Below, one piece after another: positions 7,988-33,000 of a DNA stretch of 64,000 bases. Every line of letters starts with the position of its first letter. The first letter of the stretch is position 1. Below the pieces are notes generated by a model, which worked only from the letters and a program-made list of their open reading frames with translations, had not been told where the DNA came from and ran no database searches. The position numbers and the translations under genes are program-made. The DNA is from a virus: IMG/VR virus record IMGVR_UViG_3300036900_000025, positions 1 through 64,000 of that record. One strand, written 5' to 3'.

Positions 7988-8286
7988 TAGACCGACACCG
8001 ACTTGTCAGCCAGCCACTCGATCTCGATGGGCGAGAGCGGGCGAGTACCGCTGACCGGGAAGTGGACGTTGATGAAGCCGAGTCCACTGATCCAGTTGCC
8101 GACGTAGACCGGGCCATGCCTCGGGTCGTGGCCGAGGATCGGCTGGCCGTCCGCGTCGAGGTAGATGCACGCTAGGTTATACCCAGCGGGCAAGTCCTCC
8201 TCGTTCGGGCGAGAGATGTCACCCAGTTGGTGGATCGCCGTTGTCGCGTGCATCACGACAGTTGTGGCAGTACGGTGCTTCATCAC
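7987..8286 (-). CDS. hypothetical protein
   Basis: GGAGGT SD; coupled to neighbours. Confidence 0.75.
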   Translation of the reverse strand: MMKHRTATTVVMHATTAIHQLGDISRPNEEDLPAGYNLACIYLDADGQPILGHDPRHGPVYVGNWISGLGFINVHFPVSGTRPLSPIEIEWLADKSVSV

Positions 8287-8357
8287 TTACCTCCGCAGGT
8301 GCAGTGGCTCGGGCACTTCGGGTCGGGGCAATCGCAATTGCCGCAGTCAGTACACAT
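8283..8357 (-). CDS. Cys-rich metallothionein-like micro-protein (24 aa)
   Basis: Manual translation MCTDCGNCDCPDPKCPSHCTCGGK*; GGAGGT SD 6 nt upstream; stop overlaps the next start. Confidence 0.7.
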   Translation of the reverse strand: MCTDCGNCDCPDPKCPSHCTCGGK

Positions 8358-8358
8358 C

Positions 8359-8417
8359 GACTTACCTCCGTCTAGCGGGTCAACACTAAGCCTAGCACAA
8401 GTCTAGGCTCAATGCAA
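8359..8417 (-). promoter_or_regulatory. promoter plus conserved leader cassette, copy 2
   Basis: TTGCAT-17-TAGGCT; 30 bp at 8359-8388 identical to 9082-9111. Confidence 0.85.
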
Positions 8418-8422
8418 ACGCT

Positions 8423-8569
8423 CTAGGCGTGGATCGGGCAACGGCAGTGTTCGCCGTGGTCGGGCCACGAGTCGATTCGAGGGGTCACCCCGAACCTGTC
8501 CATGCCACGAGGTGACGTGACGTGACGGGAACGCTTGGACTTCTGGATCTGACGCACCACGCGACTCAT
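8423..8569 (-). CDS. small basic protein with a His/Cys tail (48 aa)
   Basis: Manual translation MSRVVRQIQKSKRSRH...DHGEHCRCPIHA*; ATGA overlap. Confidence 0.6.
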   Translation of the reverse strand: MSRVVRQIQKSKRSRHVTSPRGMDRFGVTPRIDSWPDHGEHCRCPIHA

Positions 8570-9081
8570 GGCTTCCCCATCTCTCGGACCTGTGCACGGA
8601 ATGCGATCGCCTCGCGGGCAGCCTTTCGCATCATGGAGTTGATCGGACCAGTCCAGCCGGTCGCCCGGATCATCGCGTCCACCGAGTCGTTACGGTTGCT
8701 GACGGAGCGAGACTTCCCGGACGATCGGGACGAACCCGACTTTGAGCCCTTCTTGATCTTCGGGAGCGCGTCCCGATTGCCGTAGCGATCCACGGCGTAG
8801 CTGACTGGGCAGAGTCCTTCTCCGTCAGCCGTGATGATCCACTCGACGTGGACCTTCGACTTCGAGGCGAGTACACGGGCCTCGTCGTAGGCGAGCTTCG
8901 CCCGTTCGGTAGCGATGGACTCGCGATCCGGCACGGCCCGAACGTCACCCTTGAGGAACAAAGGCGTATTCGTGCAACGCACCTCGTCACGGGTACGGAT
9001 CATCCCGTCTTCCATTCCAGACACCTTGGGCCCGGAACGATGGGAGACGCGTGACTTTGTTGGGGTCACAATGATGGACAT
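8566..9081 (-). CDS. hypothetical basic protein
   Basis: Start directly after leader cassette copy 3. Confidence 0.8.
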   Translation of the reverse strand: MSIIVTPTKSRVSHRSGPKVSGMEDGMIRTRDEVRCTNTPLFLKGDVRAVPDRESIATERAKLAYDEARVLASKSKVHVEWIITADGEGLCPVSYAVDRYGNRDALPKIKKGSKSGSSRSSGKSRSVSNRNDSVDAMIRATGWTGPINSMMRKAAREAIAFRAQVREMGKP

Positions 9082-9111
9082 GACTTACCTCCGTCTAGCG
9101 GGTCAACACTA
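9082..9111 (-). repeat. 30-bp direct repeat (leader/SD cassette, copy 3)
   Basis: gacttacctccgtctagcgggtcaacacta identical to 8359-8388; 18-bp core also at 7765-7782. Confidence 0.95.
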
Positions 9112-10111
9112 GTCACGAGGTCGCATAACGCAAGCGTAGCGAGTCGATTCGTGACTAATGCAAACCGTCTAGGCGACTAGTTGTCATCGGATTAGGTTTG
9201 CTAGGACCAATCTAGCGTGCAACCGATAGGATGTCAAGTCCTAGCCCGCTACCTAACTAGGCGATTGTCCGCCGTATCTAGTGGCGACTAGTTGTCCTAG
9301 TCGCTACCCGATTAGGTAGCGGGCCCATAGGTCACACTAGAGTCGTCCCTACGTTCTAGCCGCTAGTCATGGTGGTCCACGACTAGTCGTCCGTTAGATC
9401 ACACTACGATCTAGGACACGACCCTACGCAAAGTCGATCTACCTATGGTCATCGGTCACAACCCGGCCGGATCGCCCCGGTAACTAGTCGCATCGTCGGA
9501 ACCCTACGCATCTAGGACTCACCTAGACAGAGTTCTTCTGTGTGACTAGTGCCTAGTTTGTCGGCACTATCCGATGATGACCGGTCGTCGATGCCGGTTT
9601 CTATGTTGCTAGGACTAGCCTAGCCTATCTAGCGGCCGTTGTCAAACGACCGGTCTAACTAGGTTCGGCACCTAGGACTAACCTACGGGCGAACCGTAGT
9701 GCCTAGACTAGTCGTTATCCGGGGTGCCGCCATGCGGCCCGCTATGGATGGGCGACTAGTCGCCGTTCCGTTGTTGCTAGGACTAACCTACCATCCTAGC
9801 GACTAGTTGTCAACTAGATTCGTTGACCATTCGGTAACGCCTACCTAGTGACGACTAGTCGTCGGGGTGATCCGCATGGATCCCGCTATGACGACTAGTC
9901 CCTATCCGACTACGACGAATCGTGTGGATAGCACTACGACGGTAGACTAACACGACTAGTCGTCGCGTGTCAATACCGAAAGTCGTATCTATCTAGTTGT
10001 GGTGGTGCGATCGTACCTACGGGGCGCGGCGCGCCCGACTAGTCGTCGGGCCATTCCGGCGGGTCCGTGGTGCGATGGGACAATCAAACCACGGATGCGA
10101 CTAGTCGTCAA
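9108..10111. repeat. array of ACTAGT-centred palindromes (consensus RCGACTAGTYGY) interleaved with leftward promoters
   Basis: ACTAGT at 9108, 9176, 9287, 9382, 9483, 9545, 9707, 9755, 9802, 9854, 9894, 9955, 10038, 10100. Confidence 0.9.
9209..9973 (-). promoter_or_regulatory. four stacked sigma70-like promoters
   Basis: TTGACA-17-TAGATT (9237-9209), TTGACA-17-TAGGCT (9645-9617), TTGACA-17-TAGGTT (9813-9785), TTGACA-18-TAGTCT (9973-9944); three share the leader GTCCTAGCAA. Confidence 0.8.
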
Positions 10112-10175
10112 CGGACAAATCGGACAGTTTCCAAGATCTTTTAGCCGATGCGGCCCGATAGGGTGCGCTATCGGG

Positions 10176-10194
10176 TTAGGTAAGGCTACCCTAA
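10176..10194. promoter_or_regulatory. IdeR/DtxR-type iron box
   Basis: TTAGGTAAGGCTACCCTAA matches the consensus TWAGGTWAGSCTWACCTWA at 18 of 19 positions. Confidence 0.8.
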
Positions 10195-10439
10195 GTCGCC
10201 TAGGATCGTTGCGATGACGACTGTTGAAGACTCAACTAAATCCGGGCCGGGGGGTGCGTGCGGCCGCTCTTGCCACTTTCGGTGCGCAGAAACTTTTCCA
10301 AACGCCTTATACAGTCTATTCTGATCAATTTCGGGATGCTAGTATTATTGTCTGGAATACTGACGAACTGAAGCGTTCTTGCCGAATGTTTCACTGTTCC
10401 CATCCATAAGGAAGGAGGAAGTGAGTCATTCTAGAGCAG

Positions 10440-10825
10440 ATGTCTTCGTATGTATTCACTATGTCTTCAATATTGTATTCATAAATAACAGCAGGTAGAA
10501 CGTATGATGATCTAGGAAACCCCATTGTGAGGACACCATCTACACCCCTAGCATCACCCAGAGTTGCTAGTAGTAGCATCCTTACCACTTCATGAGTACC
10601 AGTACGACTGTAGCTACTATCGGGCTATCCATGCGTAGGTTAGAAGGGGGGGCGTGTCTTCAATATTCGGGTGTATTCATAATCCCGTCTTCAAAAATAA
10701 CCGCAGGTCACGGGCACAATTGGGTGTCTACGAAACCCGTATTCATAATCCCGAATATTGAAGACACGGCATCAATATTCGACCGACTTTGGTCCTAGGA
10801 CTAGCGTGTGTATTCATAATGTCAT
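10440..10825. repeat. AT-rich block with direct and inverted repeats (candidate origin or packaging site)
   Basis: GTATTCATAAT three times plus two partial copies; perfect 19-bp inverted repeat 10653-10671/10750-10768. Confidence 0.7.
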
Positions 10826-11021
10826 CAAAATTCTGAGTCTCCCTCCGCAAGTTTCTGATGCTCGTACTGCTTTCGATGTTTGACGCCCGATATGGGGGGT
10901 ACGGGTCCGCTTGTGCTCGTCCGTGGATGGGAGTAGGCTGGCCCCACAACAGACGCCTGGTCAGCAGACTGCGGCCCGATATGGCGCACCGTGAGGGAAA
11001 CAGCCGTTCTTCGGAGGACTG

Positions 11022-11381
11022 ATGTACGAATACACCGGCAAGGTCACCAGAGTGGTCGATGGGGACACTCTTCACGTCGATATCGACCTGGGGTGCGACA
11101 CTCATCTCAATATGACGATCCGGCTCGATGGGATCGACGCTCCGGAGATGAGTACGAGCGAAGGTCACCTCGCTCGTGATTACGTCGTGGCGTGGCTGGA
11201 GCAGTTCGGCAACCAGGTTGTCGTTCGGACGGTCAAGGACAAGAAGGAGAAGTACGGGAGATATCTCGCGTGGATCTGGCCTCCTAACATCATGGACCGT
11301 CCCGGCGACAACTCGTTGCAAGACGACATGCTTGCTCGCGGCTACGCGAAGCCCTACGCCGGAGGTAAGCGCGATGTCTGA
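11022..11381 (+). CDS. thermonuclease (SNase) family protein
   Basis: VTRVVDGDT, IRLDGIDAPE, KYGRYLA and GYAKPY motifs. Confidence 0.92.
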   Translation: MYEYTGKVTRVVDGDTLHVDIDLGCDTHLNMTIRLDGIDAPEMSTSEGHLARDYVVAWLEQFGNQVVVRTVKDKKEKYGRYLAWIWPPNIMDRPGDNSLQDDMLARGYAKPYAGGKRDV

Positions 11382-11838
11382 GGTCACGGACATCAAGACC
11401 CGTACAGAGGTCGGACCCTATCCGACTGAGCTGGAAGAGCTCGTGAAGGGGTGCGTGCTAGAACCCGGTTGGCACGTCGAGCTGCAAGAGCGCAAGCGAG
11501 ACGACGACCACGGCCGGGGCGAAGCATCAGGGCTGACACTGGTGATCGTGACTCTGACGTACGACACGTATCACCCTGAGCGCGGGCGCGGCTACGCTGT
11601 GCAGCACTTCTTCCCGGTGCCGATCACAACGTGGAACCGCCAGAACTGGCAGCGGTGGCTGTTCGAGCAGTACGCGAGCGTCCTCGTTCACGAAGCGATG
11701 GAGAACTTCCAGATCGACGGGGAGCGCCCGTACGCGCCCAACCACGGGCCTGGCGAGAACCCTTACACGCTGAGGGAGATGACCACCGACGAAGCACGAC
11801 GCACGCAGTTCACCGGCAAGCTCGACCACAAGCGTTAG
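11374..11838 (+). CDS. hypothetical protein
   Basis: GGAGGT SD; overlaps the nuclease stop. Confidence 0.8.
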   Translation: MSEVTDIKTRTEVGPYPTELEELVKGCVLEPGWHVELQERKRDDDHGRGEASGLTLVIVTLTYDTYHPERGRGYAVQHFFPVPITTWNRQNWQRWLFEQYASVLVHEAMENFQIDGERPYAPNHGPGENPYTLREMTTDEARRTQFTGKLDHKR

Positions 11839-11851
11839 GAGCACAACTCTC

Positions 11852-12628
11852 ATGTCAGGCAAGAAGATCGCACTCTGTGTCGGGATCAATAACTACGGCG
11901 GACAGAACCAGCTTCACGGCTGTGTGAACGACGCCCGGACCTGGATGGACGTACTGCGCCTCAAGGGCTACACGGTGACCCCGCTGCTGGACGAGGCAGC
12001 GACCTTCCAGGGGATCGTTCAGGCTCTTACGGCGATGACGAAGTCGCTGAAGTACGGCGACAGGCTCGTGTTCACCTACTCTGGTCACGGCACCAACGCA
12101 CCAGACACCAGTGGGGACGAAGCGGACGGCATGGATGAAGCGATCTGTCCGATCGACTGCTTCGACAAGGGGATGCTGTTCGATGACGAGCTGCAGGTCA
12201 TCCTGGGCTCACGAGCTCTCGGCACGCGGGTCCTGATGATTATGGACTCCTGCCACTCAGGGACTGTGGACAAGTTCCTGCAGGTCCCCAGCAACGTGAA
12301 GTCGGACTTCGACATGAAGCCTCGGTTCATGCCTGCCAACGCGATGCGGGCTCGCGTCAACCCGGTCCACAGTAAGCCCAGATCACTGTTCCGGTCGATC
12401 ACCCTGCTGGCGGGCTGCCTGGACAACGAGTACTCCTACGACGCCTACATCAACGGGCTCGCGACCGGGGCGTTCACCTACTTTGCCAGCCAGGCTCTGG
12501 CGTCCAACCCAGGCACCTACAACGCCTGGCAGAAGCAGATCAGAACCTCCATGCCGAACCCCACCTACCCGCAGACCCCTGTGCTGTCTGGCACGACCTA
12601 CCAGCGGTCCCGCGTACCGTTCGCCTAG
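11852..12628 (+). CDS. caspase family protease (peptidase C14, metacaspase-like)
   Basis: ALCVGINNY, LHGCVNDA, YSGHG (catalytic His), DSCHSG (catalytic Cys), GAFT, QTP. Confidence 0.95.
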   Translation: MSGKKIALCVGINNYGGQNQLHGCVNDARTWMDVLRLKGYTVTPLLDEAATFQGIVQALTAMTKSLKYGDRLVFTYSGHGTNAPDTSGDEADGMDEAICPIDCFDKGMLFDDELQVILGSRALGTRVLMIMDSCHSGTVDKFLQVPSNVKSDFDMKPRFMPANAMRARVNPVHSKPRSLFRSITLLAGCLDNEYSYDAYINGLATGAFTYFASQALASNPGTYNAWQKQIRTSMPNPTYPQTPVLSGTTYQRSRVPFA

Positions 12629-12687
12629 CCCACCCTCTACGGGGCGCCCCCGTTCCCCGATCCCAGCCATAGAGAGGAACACCAACC

Positions 12688-13164
12688 GTGAAGATGTATC
12701 GGTTCGAGTGCTCCGACTGTGGCGATGTTGGCGAGACACGCGCCGACGAAGGCGCGGCTGACGACGACATGAGGGCGCACCCCTGCTACATCGCAGCGAA
12801 CGGAGTCACAGAGTTCGACCCTAAGGGTCTCCTGTCACCACAGCGCCGACGAGAGTTGTTTCCGACAGCCATCGAGGCCGGTGAACCGCAGGAGTCCGAC
12901 CGGGAGCACAAGAAGAAGCCGACAGTACTCGGCTGCAAGATGCTGGACTTCGGAATCGAGGTCGGCGTCATGGTGTTCTGTACCTGCGGGATGGGTTACA
13001 CCTTCATGGGACAGTTTGCCGCGCAGTACGTCTACGACAAGCACAGAGAGATCTGCGACGGTACGCCGGGTGCTCACGCGGAGAGGATGCGACAAGTCAA
13101 GCTTGACGAAGCGCGCCTCGCTGCGGGGAGGCAATCTCGAGAGGTACGGGAGGAGGTATCGTGA
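12688..13164 (+). CDS. Zn-finger-containing hypothetical protein
   Basis: CSDC...H and CTCG...H...C motifs; GAGGA SD. Confidence 0.7.
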   Translation: MKMYRFECSDCGDVGETRADEGAADDDMRAHPCYIAANGVTEFDPKGLLSPQRRRELFPTAIEAGEPQESDREHKKKPTVLGCKMLDFGIEVGVMVFCTCGMGYTFMGQFAAQYVYDKHREICDGTPGAHAERMRQVKLDEARLAAGRQSREVREEVS

Positions 13165-13259
13165 ACGGACAACGAGACAACCACTTGCTCGTGCTCATCG
13201 TCATCGCAGTTCTGCTGGCGCTGATCTTCCTGTTCGGCAGCGACGTGGTGGGTCGCTAG
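13161..13259 (+). CDS. small membrane protein (32 aa)
   Basis: GGAGGT SD; LLVLIVIAVLLALIFLFG. Confidence 0.65.
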   Translation: MNGQRDNHLLVLIVIAVLLALIFLFGSDVVGR

Positions 13260-13549
13260 AAGAGCTGGTCAGCTGTACCTCGAGGTATCGGTCGATATTC
13301 TTCGGCCGATACCTCGATCAGCTTGTGGAACGAGGTGTACGGCACCCACGGGTCCTGGGTGAAGTCGATCTCTGCGATCGGCGCGAAGCCGTGATCGAGG
13401 TCGCCAGTAAACTTGCTGGCTCTCTTCATGCAGATGCAGGAGACTTGCAGGCTATGCCCCTTGGGTCCAAACGACAGGCGGATCTGATGACCAGACTTCT
13501 TACGAACCGTTGCTCGCTGGTTCCAGTCCTCCGGCTGCTGGAAACTCAT
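13256..13549 (-). CDS. hypothetical protein
   Basis: Last gene of the leftward replication operon. Confidence 0.65.
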   Translation of the reverse strand: MSFQQPEDWNQRATVRKKSGHQIRLSFGPKGHSLQVSCICMKRASKFTGDLDHGFAPIAEIDFTQDPWVPYTSFHKLIEVSAEEYRPIPRGTADQLF

Positions 13550-13832
13550 CTAGGCCCCTATCGCGTCGGTGCTGGCGGATGATCTCATCAAGCAGGTTGT
13601 CAAACTTCACCTGAGCATCGGTGCGGGTACGCCGTACGACTGTCTTGCCCTTTGTGCGCTGGCGCATCTCGTGTCGCAGCCGGCCTCGGTCGCGCTCGGA
13701 CTTCTGACACAGAGGTCCATGACAGTCCTCCGCGTAGGTCGCCCTGGTTCCGTGGGTGCGATTGAGGAACTTCTCATCTTCAAGTTCGGCGCGCACACGT
13801 TCCAACAAGGCTAGAACCTCCTCAGATGACAT
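13500..13832 (-). CDS. hypothetical protein (HGT..TY...CH...C motif)
   Basis: Overlaps the helicase stop; basic, possible Zn/DNA binding. Confidence 0.7.
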   Translation of the reverse strand: MSSEEVLALLERVRAELEDEKFLNRTHGTRATYAEDCHGPLCQKSERDRGRLRHEMRQRTKGKTVVRRTRTDAQVKFDNLLDEIIRQHRRDRGLDEFPAAGGLEPASNGS

Positions 13833-15678
13833 ACTTGTACCTCACGGTTGGCCGTCCCACGCCTTTGGAGATGACCGGCTCGATCTCGCCCAACTCTGTC
13901 ATGTACTTCAGTACTTTCGACACGAGGTCGAGTGGGTACTTCTTGCGCTTCAGGCGGATCACCAAGTCACGCTGTGAGGGGGGCCGACCCTTCTCGGTCA
14001 GCTGTCGAACGTGACGTGCGATCTCCTCCTGACATTCGTTCATCAGAGTTGATCCGAGTTGTGCGGCAGGAATCGCGTAGGCAGCGATCAGGTACGGGTA
14101 CATCTTGATGACCTTGTCCACGATCTCAACCGGGACAACGTCGTGGTGACCGTTCGCTGACAGAAGCAGGATCAGCTTCTTCATCAGGAGGTCCATGCGT
14201 GTCAGCAGACCGGACTCGTCTGCCTGCTGCTTGGGGTGCAACAGCTCGTGGAAGAACGTACTGAACCGTTCCAAGGCCTCTGCCGACCACTGGATCTGCT
14301 TGCCCATCATAATCCAGCCGCGCAGGTTATCGAGCAGTGGATCGCAGGTGTGCGTGTCGATCTGGATACCGCCGACCGCGTACCGCTGCTTCTGCTTGCC
14401 TGAGGCGAACACCCAGCGGTTGAGGAACCCGGAGTCGGCGTCGGCCTGGTTGATGAGCTTCTTCAGCGCCCTGGGCTGGGTCGTCGTCCACACGGTGCAG
14501 TAAGGATCGTGTGCCTGGTTGTTGCCGTGTGTCATACTGATTGTGGAGACGACCTGCTGAACGTCGTACATCTCCATAAGTGTCGGCTTCATCACGTTGC
14601 CCTGACGCGACGTGCGACCTACAAGCGCCGAGAGTTCGTTGAACTCTACGATGCCGCGTACAGGCGCATAGTAAGCAACGGACTTGGGGTTACTGGGGTC
14701 AGGGATTGGCTTACTGAAACCGTGGATAAGCGCTTCCGCAGATGCTGGGGTGTTGATCCAGTGCGTTCCCTTTGAAGTTGCATCATCCCAGCGATGAGGA
14801 AGCGCACGACGCATAAGTGTCTTGAGATGATTGAAGGATCGACTCTTACCGTCCCCCGTGTGACCAGTGAGGCACACAAACAGGTTGCCATATACCGGCA
14901 CGCGGTCATAGAGAGTCACGTCCTTACCGATTGCCATACCTACGGCGATGATCCCGTTCCAGAAGTTGTACTCTTCCGGGATATCGTCCATGCAGGTGAC
15001 GCGCATGTACTCGTCTAGGAAGGTGTTGGGCTCAACGATGTTCGTCCAGTCAAGCGTCGGGAAGACGATCTCTTCTTCCTCGTCGTCATCATCACCTGTG
15101 ATCGAGACGACGGGGGCGACGGGAGAGTCTACCGATTCATCTGCTGGAGTACTCTCTCGGCTCTCTTCAGGAGGGACCGGAATAGGAGCCATGACGCCAG
15201 GTAGAGAGACAAAAGTCCAGCCGAAGCTGCGAGCCATGTCCCGACGGAGGTTGTGGAAGTCTGCTCCGGACTTGTAACCGGGCCGCTGGTAGCCAAAGTG
15301 GATTGCAGCGAGGTCATAGTGATCTCCACCTTCCTGGCAACCGCCACAGAACCAGGTATTCTTGTCAGTGTTGAGCCAAGCTGACGGGTCGCGGTCTGGG
15401 TGGCTGGGAAGCGGACAGCTAACCTTGATGCCTTCGGTTCGCTTGTCGGCTGGATTGACCGCTGACTTGTTGATCCACTTGCGGTAAGCGTCGATGATCC
15501 CGATGCGATTGACTGCCTCGTCAAGGCTTTGATCCTCGGGTGATCGCTGGTAGGGGTCCTCTGGCGTCAGATCGGCGAAATCTGACGGTGTTGAGGGAGG
15601 AGGAGGTGGTGGAACAGCCTTTGCGGCTTCTTCGGCAGCACGCCGCTCAGCGAGCTTCTGCTCGAACTTAGAAGTCAC
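13822..15678 (-). CDS. CHC2-like Zn-finger plus P-loop (DUF3987-like) primase-associated helicase
   Basis: CPLPSHPDRDPS...WFCGGCQEGGD; Walker A GHTGDGKS; Walker B-like VEFNEL; GFLNRW; C-terminal wHTH-like segment. Confidence 0.8.
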   Translation of the reverse strand: MTSKFEQKLAERRAAEEAAKAVPPPPPPSTPSDFADLTPEDPYQRSPEDQSLDEAVNRIGIIDAYRKWINKSAVNPADKRTEGIKVSCPLPSHPDRDPSAWLNTDKNTWFCGGCQEGGDHYDLAAIHFGYQRPGYKSGADFHNLRRDMARSFGWTFVSLPGVMAPIPVPPEESRESTPADESVDSPVAPVVSITGDDDDEEEEIVFPTLDWTNIVEPNTFLDEYMRVTCMDDIPEEYNFWNGIIAVGMAIGKDVTLYDRVPVYGNLFVCLTGHTGDGKSRSFNHLKTLMRRALPHRWDDATSKGTHWINTPASAEALIHGFSKPIPDPSNPKSVAYYAPVRGIVEFNELSALVGRTSRQGNVMKPTLMEMYDVQQVVSTISMTHGNNQAHDPYCTVWTTTQPRALKKLINQADADSGFLNRWVFASGKQKQRYAVGGIQIDTHTCDPLLDNLRGWIMMGKQIQWSAEALERFSTFFHELLHPKQQADESGLLTRMDLLMKKLILLLSANGHHDVVPVEIVDKVIKMYPYLIAAYAIPAAQLGSTLMNECQEEIARHVRQLTEKGRPPSQRDLVIRLKRKKYPLDLVSKVLKYMTELGEIEPVISKGVGRPTVRYKYVI

Positions 15679-15680
15679 AG

Positions 15681-16532
15681 TTAGTCGGTCCAGGGAGTGG
15701 CTGTAGTCAGTGCCCACTCGGGATCGCAGGGAACCATCTGGCCCATCGGCGTTCGCATGTCGATAAAGAACGTGGGATCAGTGGACTTCAGGTTTCGTCC
15801 CAGGGGAAGTCGCATGAGGTTCCCAAGATCCTTGCCACCGAGGCTGTCCTGCTTAGGAAATACCTCGATTGACAGGTTAGGATAACCGCTGATCGGATCG
15901 CGGTCGATAGAGCGATAGAAGTTGTCTCCCCGAGCAGGTGCCCAACCGCCGAGCGCATCGAGTACGATTCTGGCTCCGTCTCGTGCGTCACGAGCAGGTA
16001 TCCGTCCAGTGAAGCCGTAGACGTGAACACCCTTACCTCCGGAGTACGCGACGGCTACAGGCAGATCAAGCTCATCGTGGACATACTTGGCGAGGAGAGA
16101 AGCCACCATCTTGAGCTGGAACTTGTACCAAGCCCTACCAGGGTGGCTTCGATCTTTCCAGGACGCTCTGGCATCGGCGTACTCGATGGTCGGATTATCA
16201 TTGGCGTCTTGAAAATCAGGTACATAAGTGCCTCGGTAGGGGTCCGACTCCTTCTCGGGGTCGCCGTCCTTCTCTAGGTCGATGTCGAAGGCGAACAGCT
16301 TGACGGTGTCGTCAGTGTTCAGCAGGTAGTGACCGAAGGAGCGGCTACCGTCCAGGTGAGCCAGAAGATCTTCTCGCGTCCAGGGCAATCTCGTCTTACT
16401 GCCCTGTGGACCCGTTTCGTGGGGCGTCCAGATGCCCGTTGTCTGCTGTATCGCCTTGACGTCTGGCCTTGCGATGAACTTCGCGGCGAACAGGTTTGCA
16501 ATAACGTTCGGGTCAGACAAGTAAGCCCCCAT
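15681..16532 (-). CDS. archaeo-eukaryotic primase (AEP) family primase/polymerase
   Basis: FAFDIDL, YSGGKGVHVY, IEVFPKQ, GNLMRLPLG motifs. Confidence 0.88.
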   Translation of the reverse strand: MGAYLSDPNVIANLFAAKFIARPDVKAIQQTTGIWTPHETGPQGSKTRLPWTREDLLAHLDGSRSFGHYLLNTDDTVKLFAFDIDLEKDGDPEKESDPYRGTYVPDFQDANDNPTIEYADARASWKDRSHPGRAWYKFQLKMVASLLAKYVHDELDLPVAVAYSGGKGVHVYGFTGRIPARDARDGARIVLDALGGWAPARGDNFYRSIDRDPISGYPNLSIEVFPKQDSLGGKDLGNLMRLPLGRNLKSTDPTFFIDMRTPMGQMVPCDPEWALTTATPWTD

Positions 16533-16763
16533 GCGTTTACCGCTCGAGAGTCGGAGGAGCGGGCCGGATAGCGCGTAGGGGACCACCCTATCCCCTCCCG
16601 GCCACGCGGGCAAGCGGAGGGATATTGACGGACCGTCAGGCTAGTGCTACCATCGCGAGCGCCGGAAGAGCGTGCCCCTTTGGCACCTGTCGCCCGCCGA
16701 TGTCGGAGTCGGCGGGCGACGCTGCTTGACGCGGCATAGGGACGTGTGCCTATGCTGTGCGCT

Positions 16764-18128: not shown

Positions 18129-18333
18129 TCGTCAGTGTCTAGGGTGCGGGGAGAAGAACCTTGACGAGTACCAGCTCTGGGTCCACGACAAAAGGCACTA
18201 TTACGAGATCCTCGAGGAGTTCGGAATCACAACGCCTCAATCCGTGCATCCGTCGAGATTCCGTGCCCCCCATCTGCGGCTCGTGCAAGGACCAGTTTCT
18301 GAGGAGAACGTTGACCGGCGAGATGGTTTGTGA
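18109..18333 (+). CDS. small C2H2-like Zn-finger protein
   Basis: CLGC...H...H; bridges the flanking genes with overlaps. Confidence 0.5.
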   Translation: MASRPHSRQCLGCGEKNLDEYQLWVHDKRHYYEILEEFGITTPQSVHPSRFRAPHLRLVQGPVSEENVDRRDGL

Positions 18334-20216
18334 CAGGTGCCACGGTGGCTGACCCTGACTACGACCGGATTGCAGCCGAGGTAAAGTGGCTCAACGACAA
18401 TCCGCACTTCGAACAGCGCCCGGCCACGATGCTGGAGTTCTTTGGTGCTGATTACCTCAACATCGAAGGCAAGGTTCGGCCTGGCTTGAGGGATGCGCTC
18501 ATCGACATCTTCGGTGACGAAGTGTCGGGCGACATCCTCAGCCGCGTGCGCTACGCGATGGTGACTGGCGCTATCGGCATCGGCAAGACGACGTTCGCTT
18601 CGATCGCACTGCCGTACATGGCTCACTGGGTTCTGTGTCTCAAGAATCCACAGGACTACTTCAACCTGATGGACGGCTCGCGCATCGCCTTCATGCAGAT
18701 GTCAACTTCCGAGAAGCAGGCCCTCGAAGTCGTGTTCGGTGACATCTTCGCTCGCATCAAGCACTCGCCCTGGTTCCTGCAGAACGCACCGTACGATGAC
18801 AAGTACTCGAAGCAGATCAGGTTCCCCAAGGACATCTGGATCATTCCTGGTGACTCGTCTGAGACGACCTTCGAAGGTTACAACATCTTGGGCGGCATCC
18901 TCGATGAGATGGATAGCCACAAGGTCACCAAGGACAAGGACTACGCCGACGTAGGCTTCGATACGATCAACTCTCGCATCGAGTCCCGGTTCGGCAACAA
19001 GGGCCTGATCATCCTCATCGGCCAGATGAAGAAGAACAGCGGCTTCGCGGCTCGTAAGTACAACGAGCTAAAGGGCGATCCCGAGGCAACAGTAATTCGC
19101 CAAGCTATCTGGGAGTCTCTGGGGTGGGATAAGTTCCTCAACGAGGACGGCGAGCGCGACAGCTTCTTCTACGACACCAAGCGCAAGGCAGTCATCACCA
19201 AAGAGCTTGCTGCGCTTGTCGATCACCCCGAACACCTGATCGAGGTACCTCGTGTCTACATCAAGAGTTTCCAGAACAACCCGGAGAAAGCGCTACGGGA
19301 CCTTGCTGGCATACCGCCAGCAGTCTCTGATCCGTTTATCTCCCTGGTGGACAGGATTGAGGAAGCCAGGGATCGGTGGAAGGCTCGCATGGCGGGTGTC
19401 GGTGGAGAGTCTCCAGTTGATGACCGGACAACTCGACCGAAGTTCCGACCCTGGTTCACCAACGTAGACAGATACGATCCTCGGAAGCGTGCTGCACACA
19501 TCGACATCGCCATCAGTGGCGACGGAGATGCGTGCGGCATAGCGATGGGCTATGTTGACTCGATCGTGGAGATCGACGAAGAGAAGAAGCCCTACATCGT
19601 CTTCGACTTCCTCATGAGAATCCACGCCATGCCAGGCACGGAGATCATGCTGTCGGAGGTTCGCCAGATCATCTACACGCTTCGTGACGACTTGCGTTTC
19701 CGTCTCAAGACGGTGACGCTGGATGGTTTCCAGTCCACTGACACGATGCAGCAACTCCGCAAGAAGAAGTTCACCGTCGATTACCTCTCGGTAGACAAGA
19801 ACACACTTCCTTACGAAGATCTGCGGGAAGCTATCTACGAGCGGCGAGTGGAGTTCCCTGAGTACGTCACTTATCTCAACGCCGGTGATGACCGTCGAGT
19901 CGAGATTGCTGTGAAGGAACTCATGGAGCTGTCTCACGACGGCAAGAAGGTAGACCACCCCGAAGGAGGCTCGAAAGACGTAGCCGACGCTATGGCCGGG
20001 GTCGTGTCTACGCTCATGGGTGACCGGCAATACCGTAAGGGTGTAACGTCCATCGGTAACCCGGCCAATCGCCAGGATAGCCTCCAGGAAGTAGGACTCG
20101 AAGGTCTGAGCGCAGCACTGCCAGCGGGACTTAAGGCTCCCGTTCCACCGATGAGTGGTGGCGGCTCGTTTGGCCTTTCGGTTCCTCCGAGACTGCAGCC
20201 TCGACGGGAATGGTGA
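18330..20216 (+). CDS. terL: terminase large subunit
   Basis: Walker A GAIGIGKT, Walker B GGILDE, nuclease motifs HIDIA...D and DHPEGGSKDVADA. Confidence 0.93.
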   Translation: MTGATVADPDYDRIAAEVKWLNDNPHFEQRPATMLEFFGADYLNIEGKVRPGLRDALIDIFGDEVSGDILSRVRYAMVTGAIGIGKTTFASIALPYMAHWVLCLKNPQDYFNLMDGSRIAFMQMSTSEKQALEVVFGDIFARIKHSPWFLQNAPYDDKYSKQIRFPKDIWIIPGDSSETTFEGYNILGGILDEMDSHKVTKDKDYADVGFDTINSRIESRFGNKGLIILIGQMKKNSGFAARKYNELKGDPEATVIRQAIWESLGWDKFLNEDGERDSFFYDTKRKAVITKELAALVDHPEHLIEVPRVYIKSFQNNPEKALRDLAGIPPAVSDPFISLVDRIEEARDRWKARMAGVGGESPVDDRTTRPKFRPWFTNVDRYDPRKRAAHIDIAISGDGDACGIAMGYVDSIVEIDEEKKPYIVFDFLMRIHAMPGTEIMLSEVRQIIYTLRDDLRFRLKTVTLDGFQSTDTMQQLRKKKFTVDYLSVDKNTLPYEDLREAIYERRVEFPEYVTYLNAGDDRRVEIAVKELMELSHDGKKVDHPEGGSKDVADAMAGVVSTLMGDRQYRKGVTSIGNPANRQDSLQEVGLEGLSAALPAGLKAPVPPMSGGGSFGLSVPPRLQPRREW

Positions 20217-20220
20217 CAAG

Positions 20221-21939
20221 TTGTCAAGTAGCTTGCTGGGACCGAATGGTCGGCCCATCAGCAGTGAGATGTTCAGGAACACCAAGGCCGATCCTCCCAA
20301 GACTGGCCCAGCGTTCGGTGCGTGGTCGGGACGAGACATCGTCTTCTCCACACTCCCTGGCGGCGGGGTCGTGCAGTTCGACCTCAGCAAGCTGACACTC
20401 GAAGACTTCCGGTCGATGCGTGACCACTACCAGGTCAACGCTTCACTGGCGGTGCTGTCGTTCTTGCAGCACCAAAGCGACTGGCACCTCGTTGGTGACG
20501 ACAAGAAGATCACGTCGTTCTGCGAGGACCAGCTCCGCGAGAACTGGACCAAGCTCAACCGCGGTTTGGCGACTGCAAACTGGGCTGGCTACTCGCCTAT
20601 GGCGCTGGAGTGGGACAACAATTACGACACCAGGTCGATTGACCTGTCCAAGGTCAAGGATCTCGTTCCCGAAGAGTGTCGAGTCAACTGGAAAGAGGTC
20701 GAAGGCTGGGCTCCCCCCGGTCGGTTGAAGCCGAAGTTCAAGATCTACGACGGCATCAAGCACCAGGCAACCCCCGGCTGGCCGATTCCGGTCGATAACA
20801 CCTTGTGGTACCCGCTCCTGATGGAGAACGGCGACTACTACGGTCGCAAGTTGCTCCGTCCAGCGTTCACGAGCTGGTTCTTCTCGATCCTGGTTCACCT
20901 GTTCGCAAACAGGTACTACGAGCGCTTCGGTGAGCCGACTCCCATCGGTCGTGCGCCTTTCGATGAAGAGATCGACATCGACGGTACGCCGGTTCGCGGT
21001 AATACCTTCATGCTGAACCTGCTTCAGCAGCTCCGCAACCGCTCCGTTGTCGTGCTGCCGAACGACCGCACGCAGGACGAGAACGGCAAGCCGTCGTTCG
21101 ACTACAACATGGAGTACCTCGAGTCGCAGATGCGCGGCGCGGACTTCGAACGGTACATGACGCGGCTGGATGAAGAGATCTCGATCGGTCTGTTCACGCC
21201 GATCCTGCTCCTCCGTACAGCTGATGTTGGCAGCTACAACCTCGGCGTCGGCCACCTGCAGGTCTACCAGTGGATGCTGAACGCGATGAACGACGACCGC
21301 GCTCAGTACATCAACCAGTACCTGCTGCGCAAGATGACTGACTTCAACTTCAGCCCCAAGGCGCCTTCGCCGAAGATCGTCTTTCGCAAGATGGGCAACA
21401 CGAACGCGGACATGATCTCTGCGCTCATCCAGGCGCTACTGAAGTCCAACAAGATCAAGCTCGATCTTGACGAGCTCGGCCAGATGTCTGGCATGACGCT
21501 CAAGGAGGTCAGACAGACCACAGCACCAGACGCCACACCAGGGACCGGCCCGGACACCGGAGGCGGCGATGGAGCAGGTTCTGGCGGGGGAGACGGCAAC
21601 GGACCGGCCTCGGGGGCCGGTGGTAGCAACATCCTTTCGTCCATGACGGCTGCGACCCTACGGGAGATAAAGACCCGCGTGCGTCCGCAGATCGTGAACG
21701 CCTTTGACGGCAAGAACACCGGCAAGATCAACATGGGATACCGCAATCGCATGGAAAAGGCGATGGCAGCCGACGGTGTCTCGAGCGCTCGTGAGAACAC
21801 GGCGGCGCTCTATGACAAGATGGACCGCTGGCTGGAAGATGTCATGCCCATCGCAGACGAGTTCTCCTCATCCGACGAACTGTTCAACCTCTTCGACAAG
21901 GCTCTCGACACCACGGCAGCCTCGCTTGCCACGGCGTAA
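20221..21939 (+). CDS. portal protein (Mu gp29-like)
   Basis: Position after the terminase; YGRKLLRPAF, YERFGEP, GSYNLG motifs. Confidence 0.88.
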   Translation: MSSSLLGPNGRPISSEMFRNTKADPPKTGPAFGAWSGRDIVFSTLPGGGVVQFDLSKLTLEDFRSMRDHYQVNASLAVLSFLQHQSDWHLVGDDKKITSFCEDQLRENWTKLNRGLATANWAGYSPMALEWDNNYDTRSIDLSKVKDLVPEECRVNWKEVEGWAPPGRLKPKFKIYDGIKHQATPGWPIPVDNTLWYPLLMENGDYYGRKLLRPAFTSWFFSILVHLFANRYYERFGEPTPIGRAPFDEEIDIDGTPVRGNTFMLNLLQQLRNRSVVVLPNDRTQDENGKPSFDYNMEYLESQMRGADFERYMTRLDEEISIGLFTPILLLRTADVGSYNLGVGHLQVYQWMLNAMNDDRAQYINQYLLRKMTDFNFSPKAPSPKIVFRKMGNTNADMISALIQALLKSNKIKLDLDELGQMSGMTLKEVRQTTAPDATPGTGPDTGGGDGAGSGGGDGNGPASGAGGSNILSSMTAATLREIKTRVRPQIVNAFDGKNTGKINMGYRNRMEKAMAADGVSSARENTAALYDKMDRWLEDVMPIADEFSSSDELFNLFDKALDTTAASLATA

Positions 21940-24182: not shown

Positions 24183-25319
24183 ATGGCAACCGCACTCGAC
24201 CGTCTCGTCCGCAAGGAGGTTTCTCTCGGTTCCATCCGTGAGAAGCAGCCTCCGATGGATCACATCGGTCTGTCCATCGCGCCGTTCCTCGACGTGGCGA
24301 CCGACGACGTGATCTTCGACTACATCAAGGGTGGCGTCCAGGACGGCCTGGCTCCGGCTCGCGCCGAGGACGCCGAGGCCGAGCTGGCCCAGAAGGACGA
24401 GCTGACCTACGGCTCGGGCCGCGCCGCGGTGATCGACTGGTCCCTCAAGGACAAGTACACCGCCTCCGACGTGACCCGCTACCGCGAGTTCCTCATCCTC
24501 CAGCAGAAGGTCGGCGGCGTCCTCGAGGGCCTCCAGCTCAACTTCGTCGGTCGTACGCAGGCCGACTTCGAGCGCCGGATCGCCCGTCACGACGCACTGC
24601 GCCGTCGGAAGCTCGACAACCGCATCGAGTGGCTGATCATGCAGTCGATCGAGACGGGTGGCATCACCTACAACGACGGCAAGATCAAGTTCACCGTCAG
24701 CTACGGGCGTCCCGCCGGTCAGCAAAACCAGGCGCCGGCCTCGGGTCTGTACAACTCGACGACTCACGACCCCATCGGCGACATCAACGCGATGAACGAC
24801 ATGATGTTCGCCACTTACGGGGTAAGGCTCAAGCGAGCGATCACCTCGCTGCGGGTCTTCAACTCCCTGTGGAAGTCGGCGAAGTTCACCGCGCTGACCG
24901 GTCTGGTCGTCGGCGGCACGCCGTCGAGTCCGATCGACATGCGGTACCTGATGCCGAACTTCGACGCGGCCCGCGCCGTCGAGATGATCTCGGCAGCGAC
25001 CGGCGTGAACTTCCAGGTCTACGACAGCGTGTACCGGACTCGTCCGGTCGGCTCGACGGTCTGGACGAACAACCGGTTCCTGTCGGACAACAAGATCTTC
25101 TTCCTGCCCACCGAGGGTGATCTGGGGGAGATCGACGACACCGAGATCGGGTTCGCCAAGACGCTCTCCGCGCCTCACCCCGAGGGCAACTGGGAGAGCG
25201 GCTTCTACGAGTGGGAGGACGAGAAGCGCGACCCGTGGGTTCACGTCCGCGGTTCGGGCGTCAAGGCCTTCCCGGTGTTCCCCTACATGGAGTACACCTA
25301 CACCATGACGGTGCTCTAA
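24183..25319 (+). CDS. major capsid protein (lambda gpE-like)
   Basis: 378 aa, strong codon bias, RIEWLIMQ...G, HDPIGDI, DP...AFP C-terminal pattern. Confidence 0.92.
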   Translation: MATALDRLVRKEVSLGSIREKQPPMDHIGLSIAPFLDVATDDVIFDYIKGGVQDGLAPARAEDAEAELAQKDELTYGSGRAAVIDWSLKDKYTASDVTRYREFLILQQKVGGVLEGLQLNFVGRTQADFERRIARHDALRRRKLDNRIEWLIMQSIETGGITYNDGKIKFTVSYGRPAGQQNQAPASGLYNSTTHDPIGDINAMNDMMFATYGVRLKRAITSLRVFNSLWKSAKFTALTGLVVGGTPSSPIDMRYLMPNFDAARAVEMISAATGVNFQVYDSVYRTRPVGSTVWTNNRFLSDNKIFFLPTEGDLGEIDDTEIGFAKTLSAPHPEGNWESGFYEWEDEKRDPWVHVRGSGVKAFPVFPYMEYTYTMTVL

Positions 25320-30020: not shown

Positions 30021-33000
30021 ATGAACATTCAGGTCCGGGTGCTGAGCGCCCAGGCCCAGACCCAGATCAAGGCTCTCGAAGCCGAGCTGGCGCGTCTTCG
30101 CACGGAACTTGCAGCCACCAACACTGCCTCCAATGCTGCCAACGCTGCTACCGCTAGAAGCGTTGGTGGACTCAAGAAGTGGGGCAGTCAGCTCCAGTGG
30201 GCAGGTCGGCAGCTTCAGTACAACTTCACGATACCTATTCTCCTGGCAGCAGGAGCAGCAACAAAGTTCTACATGGACAACCAGAAGGCCCTGGTTGGAC
30301 TGAAGAAGGTCTATGGCGACCTGGGCATGTCGCAGAGGACCATCAACAACGAGGTCAAGGCACTCTCGAAGGCCTTCGAGGCTCTTTCTGCGCAGTACGG
30401 TGTCCAGCAGAAGCAGGTCATCGAGATCGGCGCAGCGTGGGCACAGGCCGGCGTTAGCGGTGTAGCCCTCGCTAAGAGTACAGAGCTCACGCTCAAGACG
30501 ATGGTACTCGGCGAGATGGACTCGACGAAGGCCACTCAGGCTCTCATCGCTATCCAGGCGCAGTACCGTCTCAGCACGTCAGAACTCACCGATGTCATCG
30601 GTCAGCTGAACATCATCGAGAACCAGACCGGTGTGTCACTGGCCGACCTGGTGGACGGCTTCTCCCGGACAGCCGGCGTTGCGCGTGCCGCTGGAGTCAC
30701 GGTCAAGGAACTCGGCGCGATGATGGCTGCTTTGGTACCAGCTGCTGGTACTGCTGCCCAAGCCGGTAACGCGCTCAAGACGATCTTCTCTCGCCTGCTC
30801 TCGCCGACCGCTGAAGCCGCAGATGTCCTGAAGGAAATGGGCATCAACCTCACGGACACCAGCTGGAAGAGCGCTACGGCAACGCAGCGCCTCGAGATCA
30901 TGGCAAAGCAGTTCAGCAAGCTGGAAGGCCCCCAGCGTGCCGTAGTCTCCGCCCTTGTCGCATCTCGCTTCCAGCTCAACAAGTTCGAGATCCTCATGGA
31001 CTCGATGAACTCGAAGTTCGAGACGTACTACGACAAGGCCAACAAGGCCGTCGAGCAGACCGACTACATGCGGGTAGCACAGAAGGAGCTTAACCAGGTC
31101 CTTCAGAGCGACCCGAAGCGACTTGAGCGTACCTGGGTCATGTTGCAGAACGCTATGGCTGACATCATCATCCCGATGATTCCAGCTATCTTGGGTCTGG
31201 CTAACATGATCCAGCGACTGGCACAGGCCTTCTCGGACCTCGATCCGACGATCCAGATGTTCATTATGAGTGCGCTTCTTGCACTCGCAGCTGTTGGTCC
31301 GCTAGCAAGGATGATCGGCGCAACGTCTCTGCTCTTCGGTGAGATGAGTAGCGCGATCAAGTGGGTCGGAGCGAACCTCAAGCTGCTGGTCGGCTGGATC
31401 GCAGAGACAGGGCTGGCGATCGGTCGCTTCCTCATCGGTCCGTGGGGACTGGCGATTGCTGCGGCCGTTGCGCTGATCGTTGTGTTCCGCAGGCAGATCG
31501 AGCAGGCATTCACCAATCTTGTCAACTGGTTCCAGCACTCGGGTTCGGCCTGGGTGGCGGTGTTCAAGCCGGTTGTGGACTTCTTCGGTGCAGCCGTCGA
31601 TTACATCGAGAAGGCCTTCAACTCGCTCCCCAACGCAGTTCAGAACGCCCTCATGGCGGTTGTTACCATCGTTGCTACAGCAGCGAAGCAGGTCTACGAG
31701 TGGCTGTCCTACCTCAACCCATTCGCTCGGCATTCGCCTTCCGTGGTAGACAACGTACGCGCTGGCATGGCGGTCATTCGTAACGAGTTCTCTAGCATCG
31801 CGTCCATCCACGGGCCGATCGACAAGGCCTACAAGGACATCAAGAGGTTCAGCCAGGCGACCGCTGCCTTCCGTGGCGGAATGGACACTGCACAGCGGGC
31901 ACAGGATCGCAAGACTGTAGCCAAGGTTGACCCTGGTGCGCTCCATGCGTTCGATGCGCTCGTCGCTGACCTCAAGCAGCTGACTGCCATGATGAATACC
32001 TACGAGGCTGCTGTTAAGCGTCAGGAGACAGTGGTTCAGGGGTGGAAGGACAAGCTCGACGCTGCCAACGCCGAACTGGACAAGCAGCAGAAGAAGCTTG
32101 ACGATCTCCAGGCGAAGCTTGACAAGTGGCAGAAGAAGCTTGATGATTCGCAGACGGCGCTAGCGAACTGGTCGCAGACTCCCATCACCGGCATGAAGGC
32201 TATGTCGGATGCGATCTTCTCGAACGAGCAGGCACAGAAGAAGCTTCGCCTCGAGATGATGAACATGGAGGACGCTGTAGGTCCGATTGACGACTTGCGG
32301 GCCCGTTACGCGGCACTCCAGGGCGACATCGAGAACCTCAAGGGCGAGCAGGCAAACCTGCGTTCGGCTGGTGCAGGTAGCGATATCCTCGCCACCTACG
32401 ACCAGCAGATCGCTGGTCTGCAGGCGCAGCAACAGGCAACCCAGGACGCCACGAAGCCGATCGACGACCTCCAGAAGCAGCTGGATGCACTGCAGCGCGA
32501 GGGCGAGCGGCTCGACCTCACGAATAGCCTGCAGTTCGATCCACTGACGCGCCAGATCGAGGCAGCCTCCAACGCGATGCAGGAGATGCCTTTCGATGTC
32601 ATCATGGCCGGGATCCAGCAGGCTCAGACCGACATCGGCAAGTACCAGGACAAGGTTGACGCGGCAACGAAGGCGGTCAACGACCAGACTGTCGCTGTCA
32701 ACAACGCTCAGGCGGCGCGTGACAAGGTATCTGCTAACCTTGACCGCGAGCAGAAGCAACTTGACGGCCTCCAGCAGAAGTACCAAGATGTCAAGAGCGC
32801 GGTCGATGACGTAACAACTGCGCTCAACGACATGGTCAGTGCTAGCAACGACAGTATTCGTGCAGCGAAGGCCAAGGCTTCCGCAAAGGGTAGCGTTAGC
32901 CCAGGTCTGCAGAACTTCCGTGACGCTGCCGGTGGCAAGTTCGCTGATGTCGGTGGTTCCGGTGGCTTGGGTCGCGAGGGTTCACAGGCTGACCAGTCGA

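Follow-up and report, generated by a model that had tools for sequence, protein, structure and literature searches.

A metacaspase-like C14 protease in a four-gene cassette of a tailed phage

The cassette

A cassette of four genes, the third of which encodes a stand-alone protease of the caspase type, is found on the plus strand of the IMG/VR virus record IMGVR_UViG_3300036900_000025. The record has a total length of 78,954 bp, and the window analysed here consists of its bases 1-64000; positions are those of the window. An earlier reading, made from the letters alone and here called the sequence-only reading, had described an operon of three open reading frames (ORFs), encoding an SNase nuclease, a protein of 154 amino acids (aa) and a caspase. 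All three ORFs are present at the coordinates it gave. The genes are indeed in tandem, co-directional and tightly packed, but the unit comprises four genes (11022-13164) rather than three. The features of the locus are as follows.

11022-11381, plus strand: SNase-type nuclease, 119 aa, first gene of the cassette (PF00565, phrog_452, thermonuclease profile)
11374-11838, plus strand: phrog_1540 protein, 154 aa, second gene (phrog_1540, E 6.5e-22)
11852-12628, plus strand: metacaspase-like C14 protease, 258 aa, third gene (PF00656)
12688-13164, plus strand: near-orphan Cys/His-rich protein, 158 aa, fourth gene (two C2HC-like motifs)
13280-13317, no strand: hairpin with 16-nt arms, 94% complementary, and a 6-nt loop (repeat search)
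13500-13832, minus strand: gene converging on the cassette

The start of the 154-aa gene overlaps the end of the SNase gene by 8 bp, 13 bp separate the 154-aa gene from the caspase gene, and 59 bp separate the caspase gene from the 158-aa gene. Each of the four starts is preceded by a GGAG-type ribosome-binding site, that of the SNase gene being GGAGGA, 6 nt before the ATG. The hairpin lies between the end of the cassette at 13164 and that of the converging minus-strand gene, and is a candidate two-way terminator between converging operons; having no T-run, it is missed by a simple terminator scan. No rightward sigma-70-type promoter was found in 8000-14500, and no Rfam family in 8000-14000.

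The protease and its cellular relatives

The sequence-only reading took the third ORF for a complete C14 protease with an intact His-Cys dyad, and this is borne out. PF00656 matches residues 4-248 of the 258-aa protein (E 2.5e-24; 86.7 bits against a cut-off of 21.4), covering positions 1-226 of the 233 in the model, and the dyad residues, His79 in YSGHG and Cys134 in DSCHSG, are invariant in 14 relatives and in an alignment of 8. Among solved structures 3bij (GSU0716) is the closest relative (E 3e-33, residues 5-240), yeast Yca1 matches at E 3.5e-26, and other metacaspases follow. The PADLOC 'caspase' model PDLC02987 also matches the protease (E 2e-14), and no family in the PHROG library matches it.

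What would such an enzyme cut? The basic-specific S1 pocket of TbMCA2 is made up of Cys92, Asp95, Ser156 and Asp211 (PMC4357240, PMC6426788). Cys24, Asp27, Ser77 and Asp132 of the phage protein, all invariant among its relatives, match this set, the equivalence being by motif alignment and not by structure, and they predict an acidic S1 pocket for Arg or Lys. An acidic cluster consisting of Asp85, Asp89, Glu90, Asp92, Asp95 and Glu96 is likewise invariant and resembles the calcium-site loop of metacaspases, and the protease is probably calcium-dependent. A second stretch matched to Yca1, residues 181-247, is p10-like, and the linker between p20 and p10 is about 45 residues long, below the 66-residue limit used in metacaspase classification (PMC6426788). 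Since the family match extends through the p10-like part, the protein is best placed as a prodomain-less, type-I-like metacaspase and not as a p20-only orthocaspase.

The whole protein is thus the catalytic domain, as the sequence-only reading held when it described a caspase with no sensor, TPR or signal peptide. There is no N-terminal extension, and therefore no space for a signal peptide, a TPR or a sensor domain; neither a signal peptide nor a membrane segment was found in the protein. Domain, dyad, S1 pocket and p10-like region all place it in peptidase family C14 (clan CD), metacaspase type. It has every sequence feature of an active Arg/Lys metacaspase, and looks catalytically competent and basic-specific. 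The enzyme as such is unexceptional within a protease family already known. It is the gene that is rare in phages: among 50,697 deposited phage records, only one other, that of a 485-kb uncultured phage, has a relative of the caspase.

It is useful to set the phage protein beside the caspases of this kind already known. GSU0716 of Geobacter sulfurreducens and its bacterial kin of about 260 aa are of the same size, have p20 and p10-like parts with no extra domains, and carry the same His and Cys motifs. GSU0716-type genes are cellular, whereas the gene in the window is phage-borne and belongs to a metagenome-only clade. With the type I metacaspases Yca1 (4f6o) and TbMCA2 (4afr) the phage protein has in common the S1 residues and the acidic loop, GDExDGxDE, but it lacks their N-terminal prodomain and is half their size; the position of the fourth Ca2+ ligand, after the catalytic Cys, appears not to be conserved in it. 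Metacaspases encoded by other viruses, found in virome auxiliary-gene lists, in Clostridium botulinum prophage-like operons and in giant viruses, are also stand-alone C14 proteins, and are uncharacterised. About 200 loci that encode a related caspase were compared, of which 40 are on IMG/VR contigs, 80 on metagenome contigs and 80 in genomes. The caspases on the 40 IMG/VR contigs are 25-45% identical to that of the window, and in all 40 the neighbours are unlike this cassette, with none in common.

In an unrooted FastTree phylogeny of 137 sequences, the window caspase is placed with metagenome-only sequences in a clade of 10 (48-78% identity, support 99), the sister of which, with support of 89, consists of two IMG/VR viral caspases (L007 and L018) and two metagenome proteins. 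These viral and metagenome clades nest inside a large radiation of cellular caspases of about 260 aa, a size class of stand-alone metacaspase-like proteins of which more than 1100 were found. Across the clade of 10, where identity falls to 48%, the catalytic residues do not vary, so that catalysis appears to be under selection. The cellular relatives, which come mostly from Rhodocyclaceae and other Betaproteobacteria, are 40-47% identical to the phage protein; bacterial genomes of 185,579 species hold no relative above 47%, and among the matches listed in a metagenome scan there is none above 49%.

The cellular relatives stand alone only as polypeptides, not as gene neighbourhoods. In 44 loci a DUF7379 alpha/beta-hydrolase-CHAT-TPR-S protein of about 1800 aa is encoded directly downstream of the caspase. 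A TPR-S protein is encoded upstream in 19 of 22 loci, an M15 peptidase lies two genes downstream in 22, and a 521-aa protein without known function often follows as well. The order in the Rhodocyclaceae cluster (L059:8869-14322 and 43 further loci, such as L125, L128, L132 and L185) is TPR-S protein, caspase of about 263 aa, giant hydrolase-CHAT-TPR-S protein, M15 peptidase and 521-aa protein, and the cluster looks like a two-protease conflict module.

How a small caspase may work in such a setting is illustrated by LcCaspase, which cuts LcHydrolase after Arg, between R and G, and so activates the adjacent effector; a protease-activated nuclease, an MBL zymogen, also exists in bacterial immunity (bioRxiv 10.1101/2025.11.14.688446). 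The LcCaspase/LcHydrolase and Rhodocyclaceae modules use the same small caspase type and include the nearest cellular kin of the phage protein. Modules of this type have a hydrolase, CHAT or TPR-S partner, whereas the phage is without such genes and the neighbours of its caspase are unrelated; CHAT, TPR-S and gasdermin have no match anywhere in the 78,954-bp record.

Was the protease captured from a defence-like system, as the sequence-only reading proposed, with phylogeny as the check? The phylogeny shows the clade of the window protein enclosed by a radiation of cellular caspases, and because the nearest cellular kin reside in protease-effector conflict modules, with the giant neighbour in 44 loci, such a capture is plausible; the tree, being unrooted, gives no direction of transfer. 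The cassette itself does not resemble the described protease-effector defence modules. There is no adjacent latent effector of the alpha/beta-hydrolase, MBL, Pepco, EACC1 or gasdermin kind, the EACC1-type caspase model gives 21.8 bits where its cut-off requires 140, and none of the four cassette genes encodes a sensor-type domain. The type III CRISPR-linked CHAT proteases (TPR-CHAT/Craspase, SAVED-CHAT) are also a poor fit, the phage protein being a C14 protease proper with no fused domain, in a genome with no CHAT protein. The regulatory parts of the cellular kin, namely prodomain, sensor, TPR and CHAT partner, are all absent from the phage protease.

The neighbouring proteins

The SNase is matched by PF00565 (E 3e-6; 28 bits, cut-off 21) and by phrog_452 (E 1e-33), and its family profile aligns to staphylococcal thermonuclease (E 8e-15). 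Asp21, Arg35, Asp40, Glu43 and Arg87 of the thermonuclease correspond to Asp15, Arg34, Asp39, Glu42 and Arg80 in the window, and the enzyme is predicted to be an intact OB-fold nuclease, with its Ca2+ ligands and catalytic Arg and Glu in place. The sequence-only reading placed caspase and thermonuclease in one operon and named activation of the neighbours as one possible use of the protease. A functional link between the two enzymes is not supported: the nuclease is a bare 119-aa domain, its family is present in 619 deposited phage records (mainly of cyanophages, Staphylococcus phages and Arthrobacter phages) against one for the caspase, and the two do not co-occur in the roughly 200 loci. The SNase as a zymogen activated by the caspase was likewise considered and rejected, as 119 aa is a normal length for the family and there is no linker or inhibitory segment.

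The 154-aa protein has no Pfam match and belongs to a phage-only family, phrog_1540. In all, 99 relatives were found, as well as matches in 176 Mycobacterium phage records. In phage Arturo, the one such record inspected, the phrog_1540 protein is gp5; its gene is flanked by tail and lysin genes, and neither an SNase nor a caspase is encoded close to it. A role as an ICAD-like inhibitor of the nuclease is unlikely in view of the family's presence in those 176 records and of the Arturo copy, which has neither enzyme beside it. The AlphaFold model (pLDDT 90.7) consists of a helix, a three-stranded sheet, a long helix and an extended tail with an invariant YAPNHGPG motif. Nothing convincing was found for this fold in the PDB (best Foldseek E 0.11; best Z 4.3 in a wide VIA-align search), and the ESM Atlas gave TM < 0.5, on a poor Atlas model; the structural matches in BFVD are all uncharacterised phage proteins. 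His78, His106, Glu107, Glu110 and His124 are invariant, which suggests a metal site. The closest relatives, P0122 and P0123, carry Cys-rich insertions before YAPNHGPG that are absent from the window copy.

The 158-aa protein is closer to an orphan. It has no Pfam, PHROG or NCBIfam match, and 1.84 billion representative proteins include only two that are truly related to it. Two C2HC-like motifs, which resemble an internal duplication, are joined by an invariant basic linker at residues 43-59 (FDPK..L.P.RR.ELFP). The AlphaFold model, built from three sequences, is poor (pLDDT 52, with residues 34-81 below 50), too poor for a fold search.

Do the four genes travel together? When the SNase, the 154-aa protein, the 158-aa protein and flanking proteins were compared by tblastn with the loci of related caspases, homologues of the cassette neighbours were found in none; the only matches were to the helicase and the AEP primase, in phage Perlina. 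SNase and phrog_1540 genes are common, by the hundreds, in phages without a caspase. Contig sizes tell a different story. A Logan contig of 4403 bp carries, in each case, a relative of the SNase (63% identity), of the caspase and of the 154-aa protein (59% each) and of the 158-aa protein (45%), and contigs from JGI that measure 18,437 bp carry the closest caspase (78%) and the closest relative of the 154-aa protein (72%). These equal sizes point to inheritance of the four genes as a block in a small phage lineage that includes at least one related phage.

One might think that genes with such separate histories are chance neighbours, brought together by mosaic shuffling, and that the caspase is a recent passenger of little or no benefit to the phage. 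The scattered distributions (the SNase in 619 phage records, phrog_1540 in 176 Mycobacterium phage records, the caspase in one other), the lack of common neighbours across the caspase loci and the absence of a PHROG family for the caspase all agree with this. We consider it unlikely nevertheless, since the catalytic and pocket residues have stayed invariant over the clade diverged to 48%, the whole block seems to have been kept at 45-63% identity on a second contig, and the genes are translationally packed.

The 158-aa protein is the only neighbour whose distribution tracks the caspase, and this Cys/His-rich, zinc-type protein is a better candidate partner for the caspase than the nuclease is. 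It is conceivable that the cassette is a self-contained proteolytic switch in which the caspase acts on a partner within it, most likely the 158-aa protein. A cut in the basic linker, at Lys46, Arg53 or Arg54, would free or inactivate a zinc-finger-like regulator; or else the linker would be a pseudo-substrate that restrains the protease. One of the two relatives of the 158-aa protein is on the contig of 4403 bp, the size of the contig that holds the caspase, phrog_1540 and SNase relatives, the two C2HC-like modules are separated by an invariant basic stretch that is modelled below pLDDT 50, and bacterial caspase-like proteases are known to activate an adjacent effector by a cut after Arg (bioRxiv 10.1101/2025.11.14.688446). 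Set against this, no relative of the 158-aa protein is on a contig of 18,437 bp, the size (and size is the only measure here) of the contig with the closest caspase; moreover, the model is too poor to show whether the linker is exposed, and basic residues are common in linkers. On balance we regard the switch as somewhat unlikely.

A fuller version, to which we give a distinctly small probability, would be a phage-borne switch of an undescribed kind: the metacaspase would cut its 158-aa partner at the basic linker and maybe act on the phrog_1540 protein, and thereby time the nuclease or gene expression in the infected cell. If true, the switch would be a viral counterpart of the caspase/ICAD/CAD logic.

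The phage and the role of its protease

The sequence-only reading called the protease phage-encoded, and the record leaves little doubt of it, with a CheckV completeness of 100% and genes for terminase, portal, head, tape measure and tail. It also encodes an exonuclease, helicases, a methyltransferase and a sliding-clamp-like protein. The record is that of a true tailed phage, a siphovirus. The features that bear on what follows are these.

13822-15717, minus strand: DUF3987-type helicase
15681-16613, minus strand: AEP primase
18330-20216: large terminase
20155-21939: portal
24183-25319: major head protein
30021-35501: tape measure, 1826 aa
35501-41096: tail proteins
66393-67253 of the record, outside the window: Xer-like tyrosine recombinase, 286 aa, with Phage_integrase and SAM_1 domains

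The helicase and AEP primase match only phages of Gordonia, Rhodococcus and Tsukamurella with genomes of 72-84 kb, the helicase at no more than 35% identity, so that its host probably belongs to the Mycobacteriales. A Megablast search with 10500-13500 found no match in deposited phages, and the cassette DNA is present in one run only, of soil-metagenome DNA, which is probably its source. The phage is new, and distantly related to those of Rhodococcus, Gordonia and Tsukamurella. Both the helicase (35% identity) and the AEP primase (45%) have counterparts in Rhodococcus phage Perlina, where the corresponding convergent position behind the helicase is taken up by nothing more than tiny unrelated genes, which argues that the cassette occupies a variable position for accessory genes, downstream of the helicase and beside the replication genes.

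The position of the gene bears on two further roles. The protease might assist lysis by acting on envelope or lysis proteins at the end of infection, and there is a hint in a distant metagenomic relative that some caspase relatives reside in lysis modules: directly upstream of a 49%-identical metagenomic caspase is a 140-aa ORF (L045:212-634) with a weak match to an Rz-like spanin (phrog_739, E 3e-4). The gene of the window, however, adjoins the replication module, with the packaging genes about 5 kb further downstream and the tail genes far off (30-41 kb), and its product has no signal peptide or membrane segment and the normal His-then-Cys order. We think a lysis role very improbable, and on gene position have rejected it together with a role as prohead protease.

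Could the cassette instead be a defence or exclusion module that the phage carries, expressed from a prophage or early in infection, in which caspase and nuclease respond to infection by a competing phage, either by killing or disabling the cell or by degrading the DNA that enters it? The cellular kin of the caspase belong to conflict-type modules, PADLOC models match both enzymes ('caspase' at E 2e-14 and an SNc-type model on the SNase at E 2e-6), protease-activated nucleases such as the MBL zymogen are known in bacterial immunity, and the record encodes a tyrosine recombinase, which may serve phage integration or dimer resolution. On the other side, neither cassette nor genome encodes a sensor, the bare 119-aa SNase has no inhibitory linker to remove, and the recombinase is about 23 kb from the cassette even when the distance is taken across the record ends. 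In addition, relatives with known hosts, among them GordTnk2 and ReqiDocB7, are phages that we take to be lytic, which favours a role in infection over a defence expressed in the lysogen. A module of this kind strikes us as improbable.

The reading that we favour, tentatively and as a possibility short of probable, is an unregulated protease that is made during infection and directed at the host, for take-over or counter-defence. The phage would make the caspase in the host cytoplasm, where it would run free and cut a limited set of proteins after basic residues, Arg or Lys. Its targets would most likely be host proteins, either defence or housekeeping factors, and their cleavage would be part of host take-over, while the adjoining SNase would act independently on nucleic acids. 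SNase-type nucleases are typical of phage nucleotide scavenging. What leads us to a host-directed protease is the lack of any control element, the accessory slot beside the replication genes and the companion nuclease.

Several points weigh against this host-directed protease. No RNA run is listed as holding the cassette sequence. An unregulated Arg/Lys protease could be toxic, and may need some unrecognised control, possibly a neighbour. With an Xer-like recombinase present, lysogeny, and hence a function expressed from a prophage, stays in view. Viral caspases elsewhere have different neighbours, so that there is perhaps no single role for phage caspases. And the co-location of the cassette relatives, with their gene order, was judged solely from equal contig sizes in base pairs.

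Whichever role is correct, what merits testing here is the phage context and the orphan partner, the enzyme itself being ordinary; viral metacaspases have previously been listed, not studied. To our knowledge, caspase-type proteases act as executioners in bacterial immunity and are always held in check by sensors. A phage copy that has no sensor and is apparently active offers a clean test of whether this enzyme class has been turned on host proteins or on the phage's own. The gene is small and its product looks soluble, so such a test should be easy, and whatever substrate it revealed would be the first assigned to a phage metacaspase.

Two minor observations concern the DNA to the left of the cassette. 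From 9100 to 11000 there are about 2 kb without ORFs longer than 100 aa, where the G+C content is lower (0.56-0.58); no tRNA genes were found in the window. At 634-1947, on the minus strand, a 437-aa ORF has a weak match to Glyco_hydro_42 (beta-galactosidase-like, E 8e-6), which is unusual for a phage and lies in the left end of the record, where G+C is higher.

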